This document shows, piece after piece, positions 9,933-16,813 of a stretch of 64,000 nt of DNA (its first letter is position 1; each line of letters begins with the position of its first letter). Position numbers and translations under genes: made by a program. Origin of the DNA: Escherichia coli (GTDB taxonomy: Bacteria > Pseudomonadota > Gammaproteobacteria > Enterobacterales > Enterobacteriaceae); the NCBI RefSeq assembly GCF_030013595.1, contig NZ_CP122768.1. The stretch is one strand, 5' to 3'. Under the pieces are notes generated by a model. It saw nothing but the letters and a program-made list of their open reading frames with translations. It was not told where the DNA came from and ran no database searches.

Positions 9933-12485
9933 TCAGAACAATTCCTGTGCCTCGCCATTATCGATAATGGTCGTTCCCACCTCGTGCACCGCCTGTTGTG
10001 TCGGCTGCGTACCTTCGATGAAATACTCTTCGCGGCTGTTGCCACCATTAGCTAACTGCCCGGTGCTGCGATCGATATTCACCGTCACAATACCCGGCGG
10101 CGGCGTCAGCGGCTGCTCCGGCACACCTTCAAGAACGGCTTTCATATAAGCGTCCCATGCAGGCTGGGCACTCTTGGCACCGCCTTCGTAACCTGAGATC
10201 TGATCTTTAATCGCTCCGGAAGCCGTTGTATGACCGAGATTACGACGGTGATCATCAAAGCCAATCCAGACCGAGGTCACAACGCCCGGACCGTAACCCG
10301 AAAACCACGCATCTTTCGAACTGTTAGTGGTACCGGTTTTCCCGCCGATATCGCGACGCTGCAAATCACGACCTGCACGCCAGCCGGTACCCTGCCAGCC
10401 TGGCTCACCAAAGATATTGGTGTTCAAAGCACTCTTAATCAGGAATGCCAGCGGAGTGTTGATGACGTGCGGTGCGTACTCCTGCGCGCCAGTCTTCGCC
10501 ACTAACGCCTGATTTGCCTGCTCCAGCTGCGGCATTGGCACAGAAACATTCTGCTGCTCGCGGGAGATAGCGACATCTTCAACATCGTTATTTTCCAGCA
10601 CGTTCGATTTCTGCGTATCACCGTAAATTACCGGAATATCGCATTCCGGGCAGGCTACTTTCGGTTTCGCTTCGAAAATCACGCCGCCCTGATCGTTTTC
10701 AATTTTGCTGATAAACCACGGGTCCACCAGGAAGCCGCCGTTCGCCATGACCGCGTAGCCGCGCGCCACCTGCATTGGGGTGAATGACGCTGAACCCAGC
10801 GCCAGCGATTCGGTGTGGACAATGTTTTGCGCCGGGAAGCCGAAGCGTTGCAGATATTCTGCAGCGTAGTCGACGCCCATCGCCCGCATTGCGCGTACCA
10901 TCACCACGTTTTTCGACTGGCCCAGTCCCTGACGTAAGCGAATTGGACCAGCATATTGTGGCGGCGAGTTTTTCGGCTGCCAGTCAGAACCGGCACCTGC
11001 GTCCCAGCGAGAAATTGGCACATCGTTCAACATACTTGCCAGCGTCAGACCTTTATCCATCGCCGCGGTGTAGAGGAACGGTTTGATGTTGGAACCCACC
11101 TGACGCAGTGCCTGGGTGGCGCGGTTAAACTTGCTCTGATTGAAATCAAAGCCACCGACCAGCGCCATAACGGCACCGTTTTGCGGATTGATCGACACCA
11201 GCGCCGAGTTCACTTCCGGCACTTGTGCCAGCCACCATGCATCGCCAACCTGACGAACCCAGATTTGCTGACCCGTTTGCAGAACATCGGTCACTTTACG
11301 CGGCGTCGGTCCCTGCTGAGTATCCGAACGGTAAGGACGCGCCCAGCGAACGCCTTCCATACTCAATGCGACGGTCGACCCGTCCGCCAGCATCGCCGTC
11401 GCTTCCTGAGGATTGGCGCTGGTGACTGCGGCAGGCAGCAGCGGACCATAGGTCGGCAGCGCCTTCAGCGTATCGGTAATCTTGTTGTTATCCCACGCCG
11501 ATTCGCCCACTTTCCACAGCACATTTGCCGGGCCGCGATAGCCGTGGCGCATGTCGTAGTCCAGCACGTTATTACGTACCGCCTGCTGTGCGGCCTGCTG
11601 CACTTTGCGGGTGATGGTGGTGTAAATGCGATAACCGTCTTCATAGGCACTTTCGCCATAACGGTTATACATCTCCTGGCGCACCATTTCGCTCAGGTAC
11701 GGCGCAGAGAAAGCAATCTCCGGCGCGTGATAGTTAGCGTTAATCGCCTCAGTGCGTGTCTGATCGAACTGTTGTTGGGTGATATACCCTTCATCCAGCA
11801 TCCGCGACAGTACGACGTTACGCCGCGCGACGGCACGATCCATTGAGTAGAGCGGATTAAAGGTGGAAGGCGCTTTCGGCAGCCCGGCTATCACCGCCAT
11901 TTCGTTCAGCGTCAGTTGGTCGACCGTTTTTCCGAAATAGACTTGTGCCGCAGCACCGACACCATAGGCGCGGTAGCCGAGGTAAATCTTGTTCAGATAA
12001 AGCTCGAGGATCTCGTCTTTCGTCAGCAACTGTTCAATGCGAATCGCGAGGAAGACTTCCTTAATCTTACGCATCAGCGTGCGTTCTGGACTGAGGAAGA
12101 AGTTTCTCGCCAGCTGCTGGGTAATGGTACTCGCCCCTTGTGACGCGTGGCCGGAGAACAGCGCCACACTTGCCGCACGGAAGATCCCCACCGGGTCAAC
12201 GCCGTGATGCTCGTAGAAGCGGCTGTCTTCCGTCGCGATAAAGGCTTTCACCATCTCCGGCGGGATTTGATCCAACGTAACCGGAATACGACGTTTCTCA
12301 CCGTATTGAGCAATCAGCTCGCCATCGGCGCTGTAAATCTGCATCGGAATTTGCAGGCGAACATCTTTTAATGTCGCCACATCCGGCAGTTGTGGCTCGA
12401 TGTAGCGGTATAGGCCATAAATCGAGCCTGCTCCCAGCAGAATGCAACAGACTGCAAGGATCAAAAAATACTTTACGAACTTCAC
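9933..12485 (-). CDS. mrcA: penicillin-binding protein 1A (bifunctional transglycosylase/transpeptidase), 850 aa from GTG
   Basis: Translation ...KFVKYFLILAVCCILLGAGSIYGLYRYIEPQLPD... with transpeptidase SxxK-type region; an alternative in-frame ATG lies at 12509. Confidence 0.93.
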   Translation of the reverse strand: MKFVKYFLILAVCCILLGAGSIYGLYRYIEPQLPDVATLKDVRLQIPMQIYSADGELIAQYGEKRRIPVTLDQIPPEMVKAFIATEDSRFYEHHGVDPVGIFRAASVALFSGHASQGASTITQQLARNFFLSPERTLMRKIKEVFLAIRIEQLLTKDEILELYLNKIYLGYRAYGVGAAAQVYFGKTVDQLTLNEMAVIAGLPKAPSTFNPLYSMDRAVARRNVVLSRMLDEGYITQQQFDQTRTEAINANYHAPEIAFSAPYLSEMVRQEMYNRYGESAYEDGYRIYTTITRKVQQAAQQAVRNNVLDYDMRHGYRGPANVLWKVGESAWDNNKITDTLKALPTYGPLLPAAVTSANPQEATAMLADGSTVALSMEGVRWARPYRSDTQQGPTPRKVTDVLQTGQQIWVRQVGDAWWLAQVPEVNSALVSINPQNGAVMALVGGFDFNQSKFNRATQALRQVGSNIKPFLYTAAMDKGLTLASMLNDVPISRWDAGAGSDWQPKNSPPQYAGPIRLRQGLGQSKNVVMVRAMRAMGVDYAAEYLQRFGFPAQNIVHTESLALGSASFTPMQVARGYAVMANGGFLVDPWFISKIENDQGGVIFEAKPKVACPECDIPVIYGDTQKSNVLENNDVEDVAISREQQNVSVPMPQLEQANQALVAKTGAQEYAPHVINTPLAFLIKSALNTNIFGEPGWQGTGWRAGRDLQRRDIGGKTGTTNSSKDAWFSGYGPGVVTSVWIGFDDHRRNLGHTTASGAIKDQISGYEGGAKSAQPAWDAYMKAVLEGVPEQPLTPPPGIVTVNIDRSTGQLANGGNSREEYFIEGTQPTQQAVHEVGTTIIDNGEAQELF

Positions 12486-12604
12486 TGGAAATTTCCCATT
12501 TAGTTTCATTTGGGCAGTTTATAAACAAACGCGCGGTAGTATAAAGGCAAGCCAGACGCATTGATATACCCGTCAGAGTGACGGGTGATAAGGAGATCAT
12601 CACA

Positions 12605-13294
12605 ATGGCATTTAAGATCTGGCAAATTGGTTTGCATTTACAACAGCAAGAAGCGGTAGCGGTTGCTATCGTGCGGGGCGCAAAAGAATGCTTTTTGCAA
12701 CGCTGGTGGCGGTTGCCGCTGGCGCACGACATTATCAAAGATGGGCGGATTGTTGATGCGCAGCGGCTGGCTAAAACGTTGTTACCGTGGAGTCGCGAAC
12801 TGCCGCAGCGTCATCACATTATGTTGGCGTTTCCCGCCAGTCGCACATTACAGCGGTCATTTCCACGCCCGTCGATGTCCCTTGGTGAGCGGGAGCAAAC
12901 GGCCTGGCTGTCCGGGACGATGGCCCGCGAGCTGGATATGGATCCGGACTCCCTGCGCTTCGATTACAGCGAAGACTCACTCAGTCCCGCCTATAACGTG
13001 ACTGCCGCGCAAAGCAAAGAGTTGGCAACGCTGCTTACTCTGGCAGAAAGGTTGCGTGTTCATGTTAGCGCGATCACCCCGGATGCCAGTGCATTACAGC
13101 GATTCCTGCCTTTTTTACCTTCTCATCAGCAATGTCTGGCCTGGCGTGATAACGAACAGTGGCTGTGGGCGACGCGCTATAGCTGGGGGCGCAAACTGGC
13201 GGTGGGGATAACTAGCGCGAAGGAGCTGGCGGCAGCGTTATCCGTTGATCCCGAAAGCGTCGCGATATGTGGCGAAGGCGGATTTGACCCCTAG
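12605..13294 (+). CDS. hofM: HofM (YrfD, PilM-like), truncated allele of 229 aa ending at an in-frame TAG; the same frame stays open for 29 more codons to 13384
   Basis: ATG at 12605 preceded by AAGGAG; translation MAFKIWQIGLHLQQQEAVAVAIVRG...; TAG at 13292..13294 followed by an open frame ending in a TGATG overlap with hofN. Confidence 0.8.
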   Translation: MAFKIWQIGLHLQQQEAVAVAIVRGAKECFLQRWWRLPLAHDIIKDGRIVDAQRLAKTLLPWSRELPQRHHIMLAFPASRTLQRSFPRPSMSLGEREQTAWLSGTMARELDMDPDSLRFDYSEDSLSPAYNVTAAQSKELATLLTLAERLRVHVSAITPDASALQRFLPFLPSHQQCLAWRDNEQWLWATRYSWGRKLAVGITSAKELAAALSVDPESVAICGEGGFDP

Positions 13295-13383
13295 GAGGCG
13301 GTTTCTGTTCGTCAGCCGCCGCTACCGCCGCCAGGTGGAGACTTTGCCATCGCGCTGGGGCTGGCGCTTGGGAAGGTGTACTG

Positions 13384-13923
13384 ATGAACCCGCCAATTAA
13401 TTTTTTGCCCTGGCGACAGCAACGCCGGACCGCTTTTCTTCGTTTCTGGTTGCTGATGTTCGTTGCGCCTCTGCTGCTGGCTGTCGGGATAACGCTAATA
13501 CTGCGTCTGACAAGCAACGCCGAAGCACGCGTAGACACCGTTTTGCTTCAGGCGGAACAACAACTCGCCCGCAGCTTACAGATAACGAAACCACGTTTGC
13601 TGGAACGCCAGCAGTTACGCGAACAGCGTTTGCAAAGGCAGCGCCAGCGACAATTTACCCGTGACTGGCAATCTGCGCTGGAAGCACTGGCGGCGCTTTT
13701 ACCGGAACATGCCTGGCTGACAACGATAAGCTGGCAGCAGGGAACGCTGGAGATCAAGGGGCTGACAACAAGCATTACCGCGTTAAACGCACTAGAAACG
13801 TCACTCCGCCAGGATGCTTCTTTTCATCTCAATCAGCGGGGGGCCACGCAGCAGGATGCGCAGGGACGCTGGCAATTTGAGTATCAGTTAACAAGGAAGG
13901 TTAGCGATGGACATGCTCTTTGA
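13384..13923 (+). CDS. hofN: HofN (PilN-like), 179 aa
   Basis: Single N-terminal transmembrane segment plus coiled region; operon position. Confidence 0.85.
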   Translation: MNPPINFLPWRQQRRTAFLRFWLLMFVAPLLLAVGITLILRLTSNAEARVDTVLLQAEQQLARSLQITKPRLLERQQLREQRLQRQRQRQFTRDWQSALEALAALLPEHAWLTTISWQQGTLEIKGLTTSITALNALETSLRQDASFHLNQRGATQQDAQGRWQFEYQLTRKVSDGHAL

Positions 13924-14347
13924 CTGGTGGTTCGTCGCATCACCCCGCCTCCGCCAGCTTTGCTGGGCAGTCTGGTTGCTGGTGTTAGTTACGCTCATTT
14001 TTCTGTCATCGACACACCAGGAAGAGAGCGACGCATTAATTCGACTACGGGCGAGTCATCACCAGCAGTGGGCCGCACTGTATCGCCTGGTAGACACCAC
14101 TCCCTTCAGCGAGGAAAAAACGCTGCCCTTTTCGCCACTGGATTTTCAGTTATCCGGCACGCAACTGGTTTACTGGCATCCATCCGCGCAGGGAGGTGAG
14201 TTGGCGTTGAAAACGCTGTGGGAAGCAGTGCCATCGGCATTTACACGGCTGGCAGAGCGCAACGTCAGCGTGAGCCGTTTTTCGTTAAGCGTGGAAGGTG
14301 ATGACCTTTTGTTCACGCTACAACTGGAGACGCCGCATGAGGGTTAA
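13907..14347 (+). CDS. hofO: HofO (PilO-like), 146 aa
   Basis: Overlaps hofN by 17 nt; N-terminal transmembrane segment. Confidence 0.85.
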   Translation: MDMLFDWWFVASPRLRQLCWAVWLLVLVTLIFLSSTHQEESDALIRLRASHHQQWAALYRLVDTTPFSEEKTLPFSPLDFQLSGTQLVYWHPSAQGGELALKTLWEAVPSAFTRLAERNVSVSRFSLSVEGDDLLFTLQLETPHEG

Positions 14348-14741
14348 ACGCTGGTTGTTGGCAGGTATTGCATTGTGCCTTTTAACCGGTATGCGTGACC
14401 CTTTTAAACCGCCGGAAGATCTATGCCGGATTAGCGAACTTAGCCAGTGGCGCTATCAGGGGATAGTAGGGCGAGGCGAGCGCATCATCGGTGTAATAAA
14501 AGACGGGCAAAAGAAATGGCGACGGGTGCAGCAAAACGATGTGCTGGAAAACGGTTGGACAATTTTACAGCTGACGCCAGACGCACTAACGCTGGGAACC
14601 GGGACAAACTGCGAACCGCCACACTGGTTGTGGCAACGGCAAGGAGATACAAATGAAGCAATGGATAGCCGCACTACTGTTGATGCTTATACCCGGCGTA
14701 CAGGCGGCAAAGCCGCAAAAAGTGACGCTGATGGTGGATGA
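14337..14741 (+). CDS. hofP: HofP (PilP-like lipoprotein), 134 aa
   Basis: Start MRVKRWLLAGIALCLLTG (signal/lipobox-like); ORF track starts 13 codons earlier. Confidence 0.8.
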   Translation: MRVKRWLLAGIALCLLTGMRDPFKPPEDLCRISELSQWRYQGIVGRGERIIGVIKDGQKKWRRVQQNDVLENGWTILQLTPDALTLGTGTNCEPPHWLWQRQGDTNEAMDSRTTVDAYTRRTGGKAAKSDADGG

Positions 14742-15891
14742 CGTTCCGGTAGCTCAGGTGTTGCAGGCGCTGGCTGAACAGGAGAAGTTGAACCTGGTCG
14801 TGTCGCCAGACGTCAGCGGTACGGTGTCGTTACATCTAACAGATGTTCCCTGGAAGCAGGCACTACAAACTGTAGTAAAAAGCGCCGGACTGATAACGCG
14901 GCAGGAAGGCAACATTCTCTCGGTGCATTCCGTTGCCTGGCAGAATGACAATATCGCCCGTCAGGAGGCGGAGCAGGCGCGGGCGCAGGCAAATCTGCCG
15001 CTGGAAAATCGCAATATTACTCTGCAATACGCCGACGCCGGAGAGCTGGCGAAAGCGGGGGAGAAGCTACTGAGTGCCAAAGGGAGTATGACCGTCGATA
15101 AACGCACCAATCGCCTTTTGCTGCGAGATAACAAAACGGCGTTAAGCGCGCTTGAACAGTGGGTAGCGCAAATGGATCTGCCGGTCGGGCAGGTTGAGCT
15201 GTCGGCGCATATTGTCACCATTAATGAAAAAAGTTTGCGTGAGTTAGGCGTGAAATGGACGTTGGCTGATGCGCAACAAGCTGGTGGCGTTGGGCAAGTC
15301 ACCACGCTTGGCAGCGACCTCTCCGTAGCGACGGCGACAACGCATGTCGGTTTTAACATTGGACGCATCAACGGACGTTTACTGGATCTTGAGCTTTCCG
15401 CGCTCGAACAAAAACAGCAGCTGGATATTATCGCCAGTCCGCGTCTGCTGGCCTCACATCTACAGCCTGCCAGCATTAAACAGGGGAGCGAAATTCCATA
15501 TCAGGTTTCCAGCGGGGAAAGTGGCGCGACGTCGGTGGAATTTAAAGAGGCCGTCCTGGGGATGGAGGTCACGCCCACGGTGTTACAAAAAGGTCGCATC
15601 CGGCTGAAATTACACATCAGCCAGAACGTTCCGGGGCAGGTGCTACAGCAGGCCGATGGCGAAGTGCTGGCGATTGATAAGCAGGAGATCGAAACGCAGG
15701 TCGAGGTCAAAAGCGGAGAAACGTTGGCGCTGGGTGGCATTTTTACCCGTAAAAATAAATCGGGGCAGGATAGCGTACCGTTGCTTGGCGACATTCCCTG
15801 GTTCGGGCAATTATTTCGTCATGACGGAAAAGAAGATGAACGACGCGAGTTAGTGGTGTTTATCACGCCACGACTGGTTTCCAGTGAGTAA
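14653..15891 (+). CDS. hofQ: HofQ secretin (PilQ/ComE-like outer-membrane channel), 412 aa
   Basis: Signal peptide MKQWIAALLLMLIPGVQA and secretin C-terminal domain (...LGGIFTRKNKSGQDSVPLLGDIPWFGQLFR...). Confidence 0.9.
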   Translation: MKQWIAALLLMLIPGVQAAKPQKVTLMVDDVPVAQVLQALAEQEKLNLVVSPDVSGTVSLHLTDVPWKQALQTVVKSAGLITRQEGNILSVHSVAWQNDNIARQEAEQARAQANLPLENRNITLQYADAGELAKAGEKLLSAKGSMTVDKRTNRLLLRDNKTALSALEQWVAQMDLPVGQVELSAHIVTINEKSLRELGVKWTLADAQQAGGVGQVTTLGSDLSVATATTHVGFNIGRINGRLLDLELSALEQKQQLDIIASPRLLASHLQPASIKQGSEIPYQVSSGESGATSVEFKEAVLGMEVTPTVLQKGRIRLKLHISQNVPGQVLQQADGEVLAIDKQEIETQVEVKSGETLALGGIFTRKNKSGQDSVPLLGDIPWFGQLFRHDGKEDERRELVVFITPRLVSSE

Positions 15892-16291
15892 ACAGCCGTA
15901 AAAGCGGTAATGTTTTTACGCTGAACGTGTTTCATCTATTTGACGCGCGCAGGTATTTAGCATACAAGGAGTACCGATTTGAGAGTTGGTGCTCTTCGCT
16001 GCCTGCGTTCCATGATGATGATTTATCATTCAGGCGGCATTTTGCTGTCTTTTTTACGCTAATCTTACCCGGTGATTTATCGCCAGAGCGGTGGTAGCAA
16101 GGCAGCGCGCTTGCAGCGACCAGATATGCAGAGGGATGGGTGATTTATTCAGTTGCCAAACCCGCTGGAGTATTGAGATAATTTTCAGTCTGACTCTCGC
16201 AATATCTTATGAGGTTTCAGTTCATGTCCTGCGGCGCTCTCTGAGCGAAGCGGGTTTATCATTAACGAATAGTCTTAGTAGTACCGAAAAA

Positions 16292-16813
16292 ATGGCAGAG
16301 AAACGCAATATCTTTCTGGTTGGGCCTATGGGTGCCGGAAAAAGCACTATTGGGCGCCAGTTAGCTCAACAACTCAATATGGAATTTTACGATTCCGATC
16401 AAGAGATTGAGAAACGAACCGGAGCTGATGTGGGCTGGGTTTTCGATTTAGAAGGCGAAGAAGGCTTCCGCGATCGCGAAGAAAAGGTCATCAATGAGTT
16501 GACCGAGAAACAGGGTATTGTGCTGGCTACTGGCGGCGGCTCTGTGAAATCCCGCGAAACGCGTAACCGTCTTTCCGCACGTGGCGTTGTCGTTTATCTT
16601 GAAACGACCATCGAAAAGCAACTTGCACGCACGCAGCGTGATAAAAAACGCCCGTTGCTGCACGTTGAAACACCGCCGCGTGAAGTTCTGGAAGCGTTGG
16701 CCAATGAACGCAATCCGCTGTATGAAGAGATTGCCGACGTGACCATTCGTACTGATGATCAAAGCGCTAAAGTGGTCGCAAACCAGATTATTCACATGCT
16801 GGAAAGCAACTAA
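16292..16813 (+). CDS. aroK: shikimate kinase I, 173 aa
   Basis: Translation [28 protein letters not shown]... (Walker A); ORF track starts upstream but the ATG at 16292 gives the 173-aa protein. Confidence 0.95.

Follow-up and report, generated by a model that had tools for sequence, protein, structure and literature searches.

A long co-directional overlap of hofP and hofQ in Escherichia coli as a probable dual-coding stretch derived from a 3′ extension of hofP

A stretch of 64,000 nucleotides (nt) from Escherichia coli (contig NZ_CP122768.1 of assembly GCF_030013595.1; referred to in full as the window) contains the mrcA-hofMNOPQ-aroK-aroB region, in which the reading frames of hofP and hofQ share 89 nt on the same strand. 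The overlap is very probably genuine, coding in both frames, and goes back to a lengthening of hofP at its 3′ end. Each frame is that of a real protein-coding gene, as indicated by Pfam matches, by a PilP-like fold for HofP and by solved PilQ structures for HofQ. The hofQ start within hofP is conserved across the Enterobacteriaceae, the hofP frame stays open beyond it in more species than expected by chance, and bases that would give Cys, Tyr, Trp or a stop in the hofP frame are strongly avoided at the synonymous sites of hofQ in the shared region.

The overlapping reading frames and the start of hofQ

The arrangement of the two genes is defined by the following features, with positions given in the window.

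14337–14741, + strand: hofP coding sequence, ATG at 14337, 134 aa plus TGA at 14739–14741, from the open reading frame and its translation; RefSeq identical.
14653–15891, + strand: hofQ coding sequence, a secretin of 412 aa, from the open reading frame, Pfam domains STN, Secretin_N and Secretin, and PilQ structures.
14653–14741, + strand: two-frame region of 89 nt, hofQ codons 1–30 coinciding with hofP codons 106–134 plus the stop.
14642–14646, + strand: Shine-Dalgarno (SD) sequence AGGAG of hofQ, 6 nt before the ATG and within hofP codons Gln102-Gly103-Asp104.
14653–14655, + strand: hofQ start codon ATG, with ATG or GTG at the homologous position in 78/78 in-phase species.
14653–14706, + strand: hofQ signal-peptide codons, MKQWIAALLLMLIPGVQA, with cleavage after VQA, as read from the sequence.

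Position 2 of the hofP codons coincides with position 1 of the hofQ codons. The first-pass annotation of this DNA had reported an 89-nt overlap in an operon whose other junctions overlap by 1–17 nt, and both statements were borne out. The overlap is present in the open reading frames, in the sequence and in RefSeq, and a K-12 gene-distance table gives −89 for hofP-hofQ, −11 for hofO-hofP, −17 for hofN-hofO and −1 for hofM-hofN (PMC10666635, supplement); the remaining junctions measured 1 nt (hofM/N), 17 nt (hofN/O) and 11 nt (hofO/P). RefSeq coordinates for the two genes are identical in the nearest genome, strain HCP5S3_I2, which differs from the window by one base over 12000–16500 (4.5 kb), and in the K-12 derivative C600. 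The locus was found in 5,425/5,426 complete E. coli genomes at ≥97 % identity. The 89-nt overlap is thus confirmed as correct and is already in the standard annotation. A literature search on hofP, hofQ and hofMNOPQ found no study discussing the overlap and no study of HofP expression.

For comparison, the hofQ locus was taken from 80 Enterobacteriaceae species in about 25 genera, whose HofQ proteins are 67–98 % identical (81 sequences). In 78/81 sequences hofP and hofQ overlap in the same phase by 38–140 nt; together with the two RefSeq genomes and the E. coli set, this shows that the hofP stop has not been displaced by a sequencing error or strain-specific frameshift. An SD-like AAGGA, AGGAG or GAGG precedes the hofQ start at the equivalent place in every species examined. 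The codons after the start encode, in 78/78 in-phase species, a basic n-region, a hydrophobic core and a cleavage site of the AxA type. The HofQ N-terminus in the window reads MKQWIAALLLMLIPGVQA, followed after the cleavage site by AKPQK, and homology to solved PilQ structures starts at residue 22–27, directly past the signal peptide.

The first-pass annotation had also considered that hofQ might initiate further downstream. Under such an annotation artefact hofQ would start at TTG +27, ATG +30 or later and the true overlap would be short. There is precedent for this, as 409/715 long same-strand overlaps in databases were of this kind (PMC2478687), annotated HofQ lengths differ inside tight clusters (390–416 aa inside one 90 % identity cluster of Buttiauxella proteins), and in a related contig, L089, an automatic call starts hofQ at an internal Met (2811–2919; 379 aa), which deletes the whole signal peptide and avoids the overlap. 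However, the upstream ATG of L089 at 2811 restores a normal signal peptide, with an overlap of 98 nt. The SD and the upstream ATG or GTG are conserved in 78/78 species, whereas the downstream candidates vary between species and would cost this outer-membrane secretin its basic n-region and part of its hydrophobic core. Comparison among hofQ orthologues revealed no conserved downstream start giving a short overlap, and no downstream start that combined an orthologue-like length with a conventional junction. Misannotation is almost certainly not the explanation, and the conservation pattern indicates that the hofQ start predicted at 14653 is genuine.

Codon bias in hofQ beneath the hofP frame

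Codon choice in the overlap was sorted by the amino acid that each hofQ third base makes in the hofP frame, using 40 representative species and a bootstrap. Third-position T in the overlapping hofQ codons was at 0.31 of expectation, versus approximately 0.9 immediately downstream. The deficit followed the outcome in the hofP frame, given here as observed over expected (O/E).

Cys in the hofP frame: 2 observed, 47.9 expected, O/E 0.04 (95 % confidence interval 0–0.14, bootstrap).
Stop: 7 observed, 28 expected, O/E 0.25.
Tyr: 7 observed, 25.5 expected, O/E 0.27.
Trp: 1 observed, 5.8 expected, O/E 0.17.
Ser: 80 observed, 84.8 expected, O/E 0.94, not depleted.

The observed count was under expectation in 39/40 species. 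Controls used a pooled class of Cys, stop, Tyr, Trp and Phe outcomes.

Next 130 hofQ codons: O/E 0.93.
Hydrophobic 5′ segments of hofN, hofO and hofP in the same genomes: O/E 0.93.
Short-tail lineages, from the premature hofP stop to the Asp-Asp codons of hofQ at which hofP stops in E. coli: 6 versus 6.06 expected.
hofQ signal-peptide codons of four non-overlapping outgroups: 29 versus 29.6 expected, with Cys 9 versus 7.3.

The bias was replicated in seven independent distant loci (3 versus 15.1 overall, Cys 0 versus 4.3, Ser 10 versus 10.6, control 116 versus 108.9). In one sequence with only a 4-nt ATGA overlap (L052) it looks relaxed, at 4 versus 2.9. Since hofQ third positions avoid Cys, Tyr, Trp and stop in the hofP frame while tolerating Ser, the tail encoded by the overlap would appear to be made in the cell. 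The codon data thus argue, indirectly but strongly, for translation of the tail and for selection that acts on its composition and keeps it free of Cys, of aromatic residues and, less strictly, of premature stops. The proposal in the first-pass annotation that the C-terminus of HofP is translated across the hofQ start in another frame gains support from this frame-specific selection on hofQ synonymous sites. Selection is visible in both frames, with position 2 of hofQ the most conserved and its signal-peptide features kept, and with the depletions in the hofP frame.

Within one genome, an open hofP frame beyond the hofQ ATG is unremarkable by chance. When the E. coli hofQ codons were shuffled synonymously the frame remained open to the Asp-Asp site in 85 % of trials, because signal-peptide codons rarely make stops in the hofP frame; such a stop arises only where a hofQ codon ending in T precedes one that begins with AA, AG or GA, and this combination is rare in the signal peptide. 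It is the conservation between species, together with the codon bias, that goes beyond chance. Neutral read-through, in which the tail, translated or not, is invisible to selection and the frame persists because stops seldom form, would fit the shuffled frames, the variable sequence and length of the tail, its ratio of dNN/dNS near 1, and the fact that its apparently conserved residues (NEAMD, GGK and the terminal GG) are explained by conserved hofQ codons. It does not fit the 68/78 species in which the frame reaches the Asp-Asp site, against 48 expected on average from shuffles, the 4–25 fold decrease of Cys, Tyr, Trp and stop outcomes with Ser unaffected, or the loss of the depletion wherever the hofP frame leaves the codons uncovered. 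Neutrality of the tail is very unlikely on these grounds.

A constraint at the RNA level on the hofQ initiation region, through structure, spurious starts or a nuclease site, would produce the bias without selection on the tail. Synonymous rates are generally reduced at the starts of enterobacterial genes, and A-ending codons are enriched in this region. The depletion nevertheless follows the resulting amino acid, in that T is tolerated before C, where it gives Ser, but not before G or A, where Cys, Trp, Tyr or a stop would result. Avoidance of spurious third-frame starts was ruled out as the cause of the T deficit, as depletion was independent of third-frame start-codon formation and equally strong where xCT is followed by G (1 versus 18.1). 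A general codon bias of 5′ ends or hydrophobic segments was ruled out by the unbiased hofN, hofO and hofP segments and by the unbiased hofQ region of the non-overlapping outgroups. The segment 14600–14760 folds no better than shuffled sequences (z=0.03), with the SD and ATG unpaired, so that an RNA structure sequestering the hofQ start was also rejected. With no dependence on third-frame starts and no unusual RNA fold, an RNA-level cause is extremely unlikely.

The HofP tail and its distribution

The overlap encodes the part of HofP that follows its folded domain.

14424–14648, + strand: HofP folded core, residues ~30–104, a PilP / GspC-HR-like beta domain (AlphaFold, Foldseek and alignment).
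14649–14738, + strand: HofP C-terminal tail, residues 105–134, DTNEAMDSRTTVDAYTRRTGGKAAKSDADGG; hydrophilic, predicted disordered, variable in sequence and length.
14739–14741, + strand: hofP stop TGA, made of the last base of hofQ Asp29 (GAT) and the first two of Asp30 (GAC).
14688, + strand: T instead of G, the only difference in the overlap from the K-12 lineage (C600, compared base by base).

HofP residues 3–134 match Pfam PF10748 (HofP; E 5.8e-78), a family of its own. In the core, Cys30 and Cys92 are invariant and the end is a conserved W-x-W-x-R-(Q/E)-G. The AlphaFold confidence measure (predicted local distance difference test) is about 90 or above for residues 31–100 and <50 for residues 108–128 and 130–134. 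Foldseek matched HofP with a probability of 1.00 to the PilP chains 3jc8, 2ivw, 2lc4 and 2y4x and to GspC-HR 3oss, and HofP has the C-terminal beta-sandwich (HR-like) domain of the PilP family; a sequence search against solved structures gave no match, and only the fold search was informative. Unlike the lipoprotein PilP, HofP has no lipobox, its signal region (14337–14393) ending LLTG-MRDPF with no Cys at +1. The (Q/E)-G of the core, which is nearly invariant, shares bases 14642–14648 with the hofQ SD, and may owe its conservation to the ribosome-binding site and not to the protein. The T at 14688 is synonymous in hofQ (Leu12, CTT versus CTG) and changes Asp118 of the HofP tail to Tyr, one of the rare aromatic residues in the tail frame.

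The tail differs between genera in sequence and length. Its apparently conserved residues lie on conserved hofQ codons, namely the start with MKxW, AAK after the cleavage site, and LxVDD. The stop falls on Asp29-Asp30 of hofQ, at the start of the N0 domain (VTLMVDDVPV), and it lies at this site or 3 nt earlier in 68/78 species; the first Asp of the site is GAT in 36/40 representatives. At codons 4–5 of hofQ (TGG ATA, 14662–14667), GGAT(A) recurs from genus to genus where the HofQ residues themselves differ (W/R/G, then I/T/M), and the rare Ile codon ATA is used almost exclusively at codon 5. This motif forms a conserved Asp in the hofP frame. Its conservation could result from selection on the tail Asp, from A-rich codons near the start, or from avoidance of the stops that ATT would make before AGC or AAA.

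Some of these features could indicate that a specific function of the tail keeps the overlap, such as contact with HofQ, peptidoglycan or another Hof component, or a minimum length. Stops are depleted four-fold, no overlap of 5–37 nt was seen among the compared loci, Lys occurs more often and Glu less often than expected in the tail frame, the Asp codon at hofQ codons 4–5 persists whichever of Ile, Thr and Met HofQ has there, and GAT is preferred at the stop site. Yet the tail is disordered by prediction and has no position-specific conservation beyond that imposed by hofQ. Naturally truncated tails of about 14 residues and revertants to ATGA exist, and outgroup HofP proteins are entirely without a tail. 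A specific function is therefore an unlikely, though not negligible, reason for the overlap.

The modal overlap among the 81 sequences was 89 nt (42 sequences). The three exceptions to the in-phase arrangement were two metagenome-assembled sequences, L050 and L052, and Citrobacter koseri (L039). In the first two, the spacer between SD and ATG is one base longer, giving ATGA and a 4-nt overlap (L050:1214–1217 and L052:3555–3558) with a HofP of 103–105 aa; one further protein cluster also has this form. Codon bias downstream is relaxed in L052 and not in L050, and a recent change or an error of assembly may account for the ATGA form of L050. In C. koseri NCTC10786 (L039:3891–3962) hofQ is apparently frameshifted just past the signal peptide, placing its N-terminal codons in the hofP frame. 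In Escherichia albertii NBRC 107761 an in-frame stop occurs at hofP codon 34 (L006:3784–3786) while the tail frame is still open; hofP of this type strain is probably a pseudogene.

Wider loci were found by a HofP profile search followed by contig look-ups, and the long overlap was again present in the same phase.

Buttiauxella (L083): overlap of 62 nt.
Atlantibacter (L084): overlap of 74 nt.
Cedecea-like (L086): overlap of 62 nt.
Pantoea (L085): overlap of 56 nt.
Tatumella (L088): overlap of 50 nt.
Genus not assigned (L087, L089 and L090): overlaps of 59, 98 and 62 nt.

HofP lengths were 117–151 aa across the Enterobacteriaceae, mostly 131–137, and 124–136 aa in Pantoea, Tatumella, Buttiauxella and similar genera, so that gene lengths agree with those of orthologues, as a survey of long overlaps demands of genuine cases (PMC2478687). 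Four outgroup loci had ordinary junctions.

Serratia fonticola: TGATG, −1 nt, HofP of 118 aa.
Yersinia enterocolitica: +35 nt, HofP of 116 aa.
Brenneria tiliae: +65 nt, HofP of 135 aa (called length), ending before hofQ.
Yersiniaceae-like contig L091: +52 nt, HofP of 139 aa (called length), ending before hofQ.

The HofP proteins of Serratia and Yersinia (116–118 aa) are without the tail. From the ordinary junctions of the outgroups, the long overlap appears to be a derived 3′ extension of hofP that is fixed in the Enterobacteriaceae and Erwiniaceae.

The extension may have arisen in the ancestor of these two families when a one-base shift put hofP into a different frame relative to hofQ, so that it missed its old stop and read on. 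The extended frame runs through the hofQ SD, the start codon and the stop-poor signal-peptide codons and terminates at the TGA made by the conserved Asp-Asp codons of hofQ. The approximately 30 added residues form a hydrophilic, predicted disordered tail without a conserved sequence of its own. A stray Cys or a sticky aromatic residue would be harmful on a periplasmic protein with the conserved Cys30/Cys92 pair, and shortening of the tail would be mildly disfavoured.

Several observations weigh against the interpretation of the overlap as a selected dual-coding extension. An overlapping-gene (OLGenie-style) analysis gave dNN/dNS of ~1 for the tail, equal to that of a virtual control frame and without residue-specific constraint, which indicates that no particular tail sequence is required. 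Several lineages have shorter tails, with overlaps of 38–62 nt, and these, together with the ATGA forms, suggest that the tail is dispensable at least sometimes. Synonymous divergence in the overlap was ~0.4–0.5 times the downstream rate in close pairs, and this was not counted as evidence, as it could equally be explained by the general 5′-end effect of enterobacterial genes. The species are related and their counts not independent, which was addressed by the use of representatives, bootstrap and independent replication rather than a tree-based model. The simplest origin, a one-base frame change near the hofQ ribosome-binding site, is suggested by four outgroups only.

Initiation of hofQ, related systems and implications

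With 89 nt from the hofQ start to the hofP stop further downstream, the two are not nearly contiguous. Termination-reinitiation is reported to fall to near zero once stop and start are approximately 20 nt apart (PMC10666635), so that the 89-nt arrangement is unlikely to couple the genes in this way and classical coupling of hofQ to hofP is doubtful. Given the strong SD, its ideal spacing and the unstructured region around it, hofQ most likely initiates on its own. Ribosomes finishing hofP would have to cross the hofQ start, and may transiently block it or keep it unfolded; an effect on hofQ translation by coupling or occlusion, which the first-pass annotation had envisaged in strong form, is conceivable from this geometry. 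The four-fold depletion of stops, the lack of 5–37 nt overlaps and the GAT preference hint that it is somewhat costly to terminate near the hofQ start or to lose the tail; the natural short tails and ATGA revertants show that this cost is not absolute. It is quite improbable that the stop-free zone is actively kept, rather than being a tolerated leftover, as a ribosome-transit device that sets the HofP:HofQ ratio or times hofQ initiation. If it were, this would be a mode of coupling distinct from termination-reinitiation, and hofP-hofQ would be the longest functional co-directional overlap in E. coli.

Among 338 genomes surveyed for co-directional overlaps, none of >60 bp proved real, the longest real case being holD-rimI at 32–56 bp (PMC2478687). 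The hofP and hofQ genes are absent from its supplementary lists, so the survey did not evaluate the pair. Like holD-rimI, hofP-hofQ is a same-strand overlap of genuine genes that is conserved across enterobacterial genera with a genus-dependent length. It differs in its greater length, which at 89 nt in E. coli and as much as 140 nt in other species exceeds the 60-bp limit of the survey, and in consisting of a signal peptide in the downstream gene and a disordered tail, with compositional rather than sequence constraint, in the upstream gene. The pair resembles pilP-pilQ and the hofP-hofQ of Serratia and Yersinia in gene content, in the pilM/N/O/P/Q order between mrcA and aroK, in the PilP-like fold and in the secretin, whereas the hofP-hofQ junctions of Serratia, Yersinia and the other outgroups are of −1 to +65 nt. 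The COG-pair row for PilP@HofQ in PMC10666635 has small values ('13, -1, 29, 281'); if these are distances, the spacings would be short. As with the short coupled overlaps (ATGA, TGATG), the genes are adjacent in an operon for one complex, and the rest of the hof operon does overlap by 1, 11 and 17 nt, but the hofP stop lies far past the hofQ start and hofQ has its own strong SD. The new C-terminal peptide drawn from the other frame of an existing gene recalls 3′ extension by stop loss or frameshift (class iii of PMC2478687) and viral overprinting. However, the hofP extension is not a strain-specific error or a recent accident. It has become fixed in two or more bacterial families, and purifying selection on composition is seen in the overprinted frame. 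The hofP-hofQ pair is a well-supported addition to the known, rare class of long co-directional overlaps and not a new kind of system.

Elsewhere in the operon, the sole difference between the window and strain HCP5S3_I2 over 12000–16500 is an amber TAG in hofM at 13292–13294, where the nearest RefSeq genome and K-12 have TGG (Trp230). This makes hofM 30 codons shorter in the window, and the Hof system of this strain may be defective. Upstream of hofM, the mrcA-hofM spacer contains no CRP-S-like site (TGCGA-N6-TCGCA, ≤2 mismatches), and matches in the window were fewer than in shuffled sequences.

The overlap is a clear counter-example to the 60-bp limit in the best-studied bacterium. Many gene callers and curators trim such overlaps following the conclusion of the survey; the hofQ start of L089 was mis-called for that reason and illustrates how long overlaps are 'corrected' away. 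The purging from the synonymous sites of one gene of bases that give Cys, aromatic residues or stops in the other frame is a signature that can be checked. The hofP-hofQ pair offers a natural system in which to study how a C-terminal peptide born by frame extension becomes harmless, how signal-peptide codons bear a second frame, and whether the passage of ribosomes over a start site changes how the next gene is expressed. 'Silent' changes in the first 30 codons of hofQ alter HofP, which is relevant to the engineering or mutation of hofQ.

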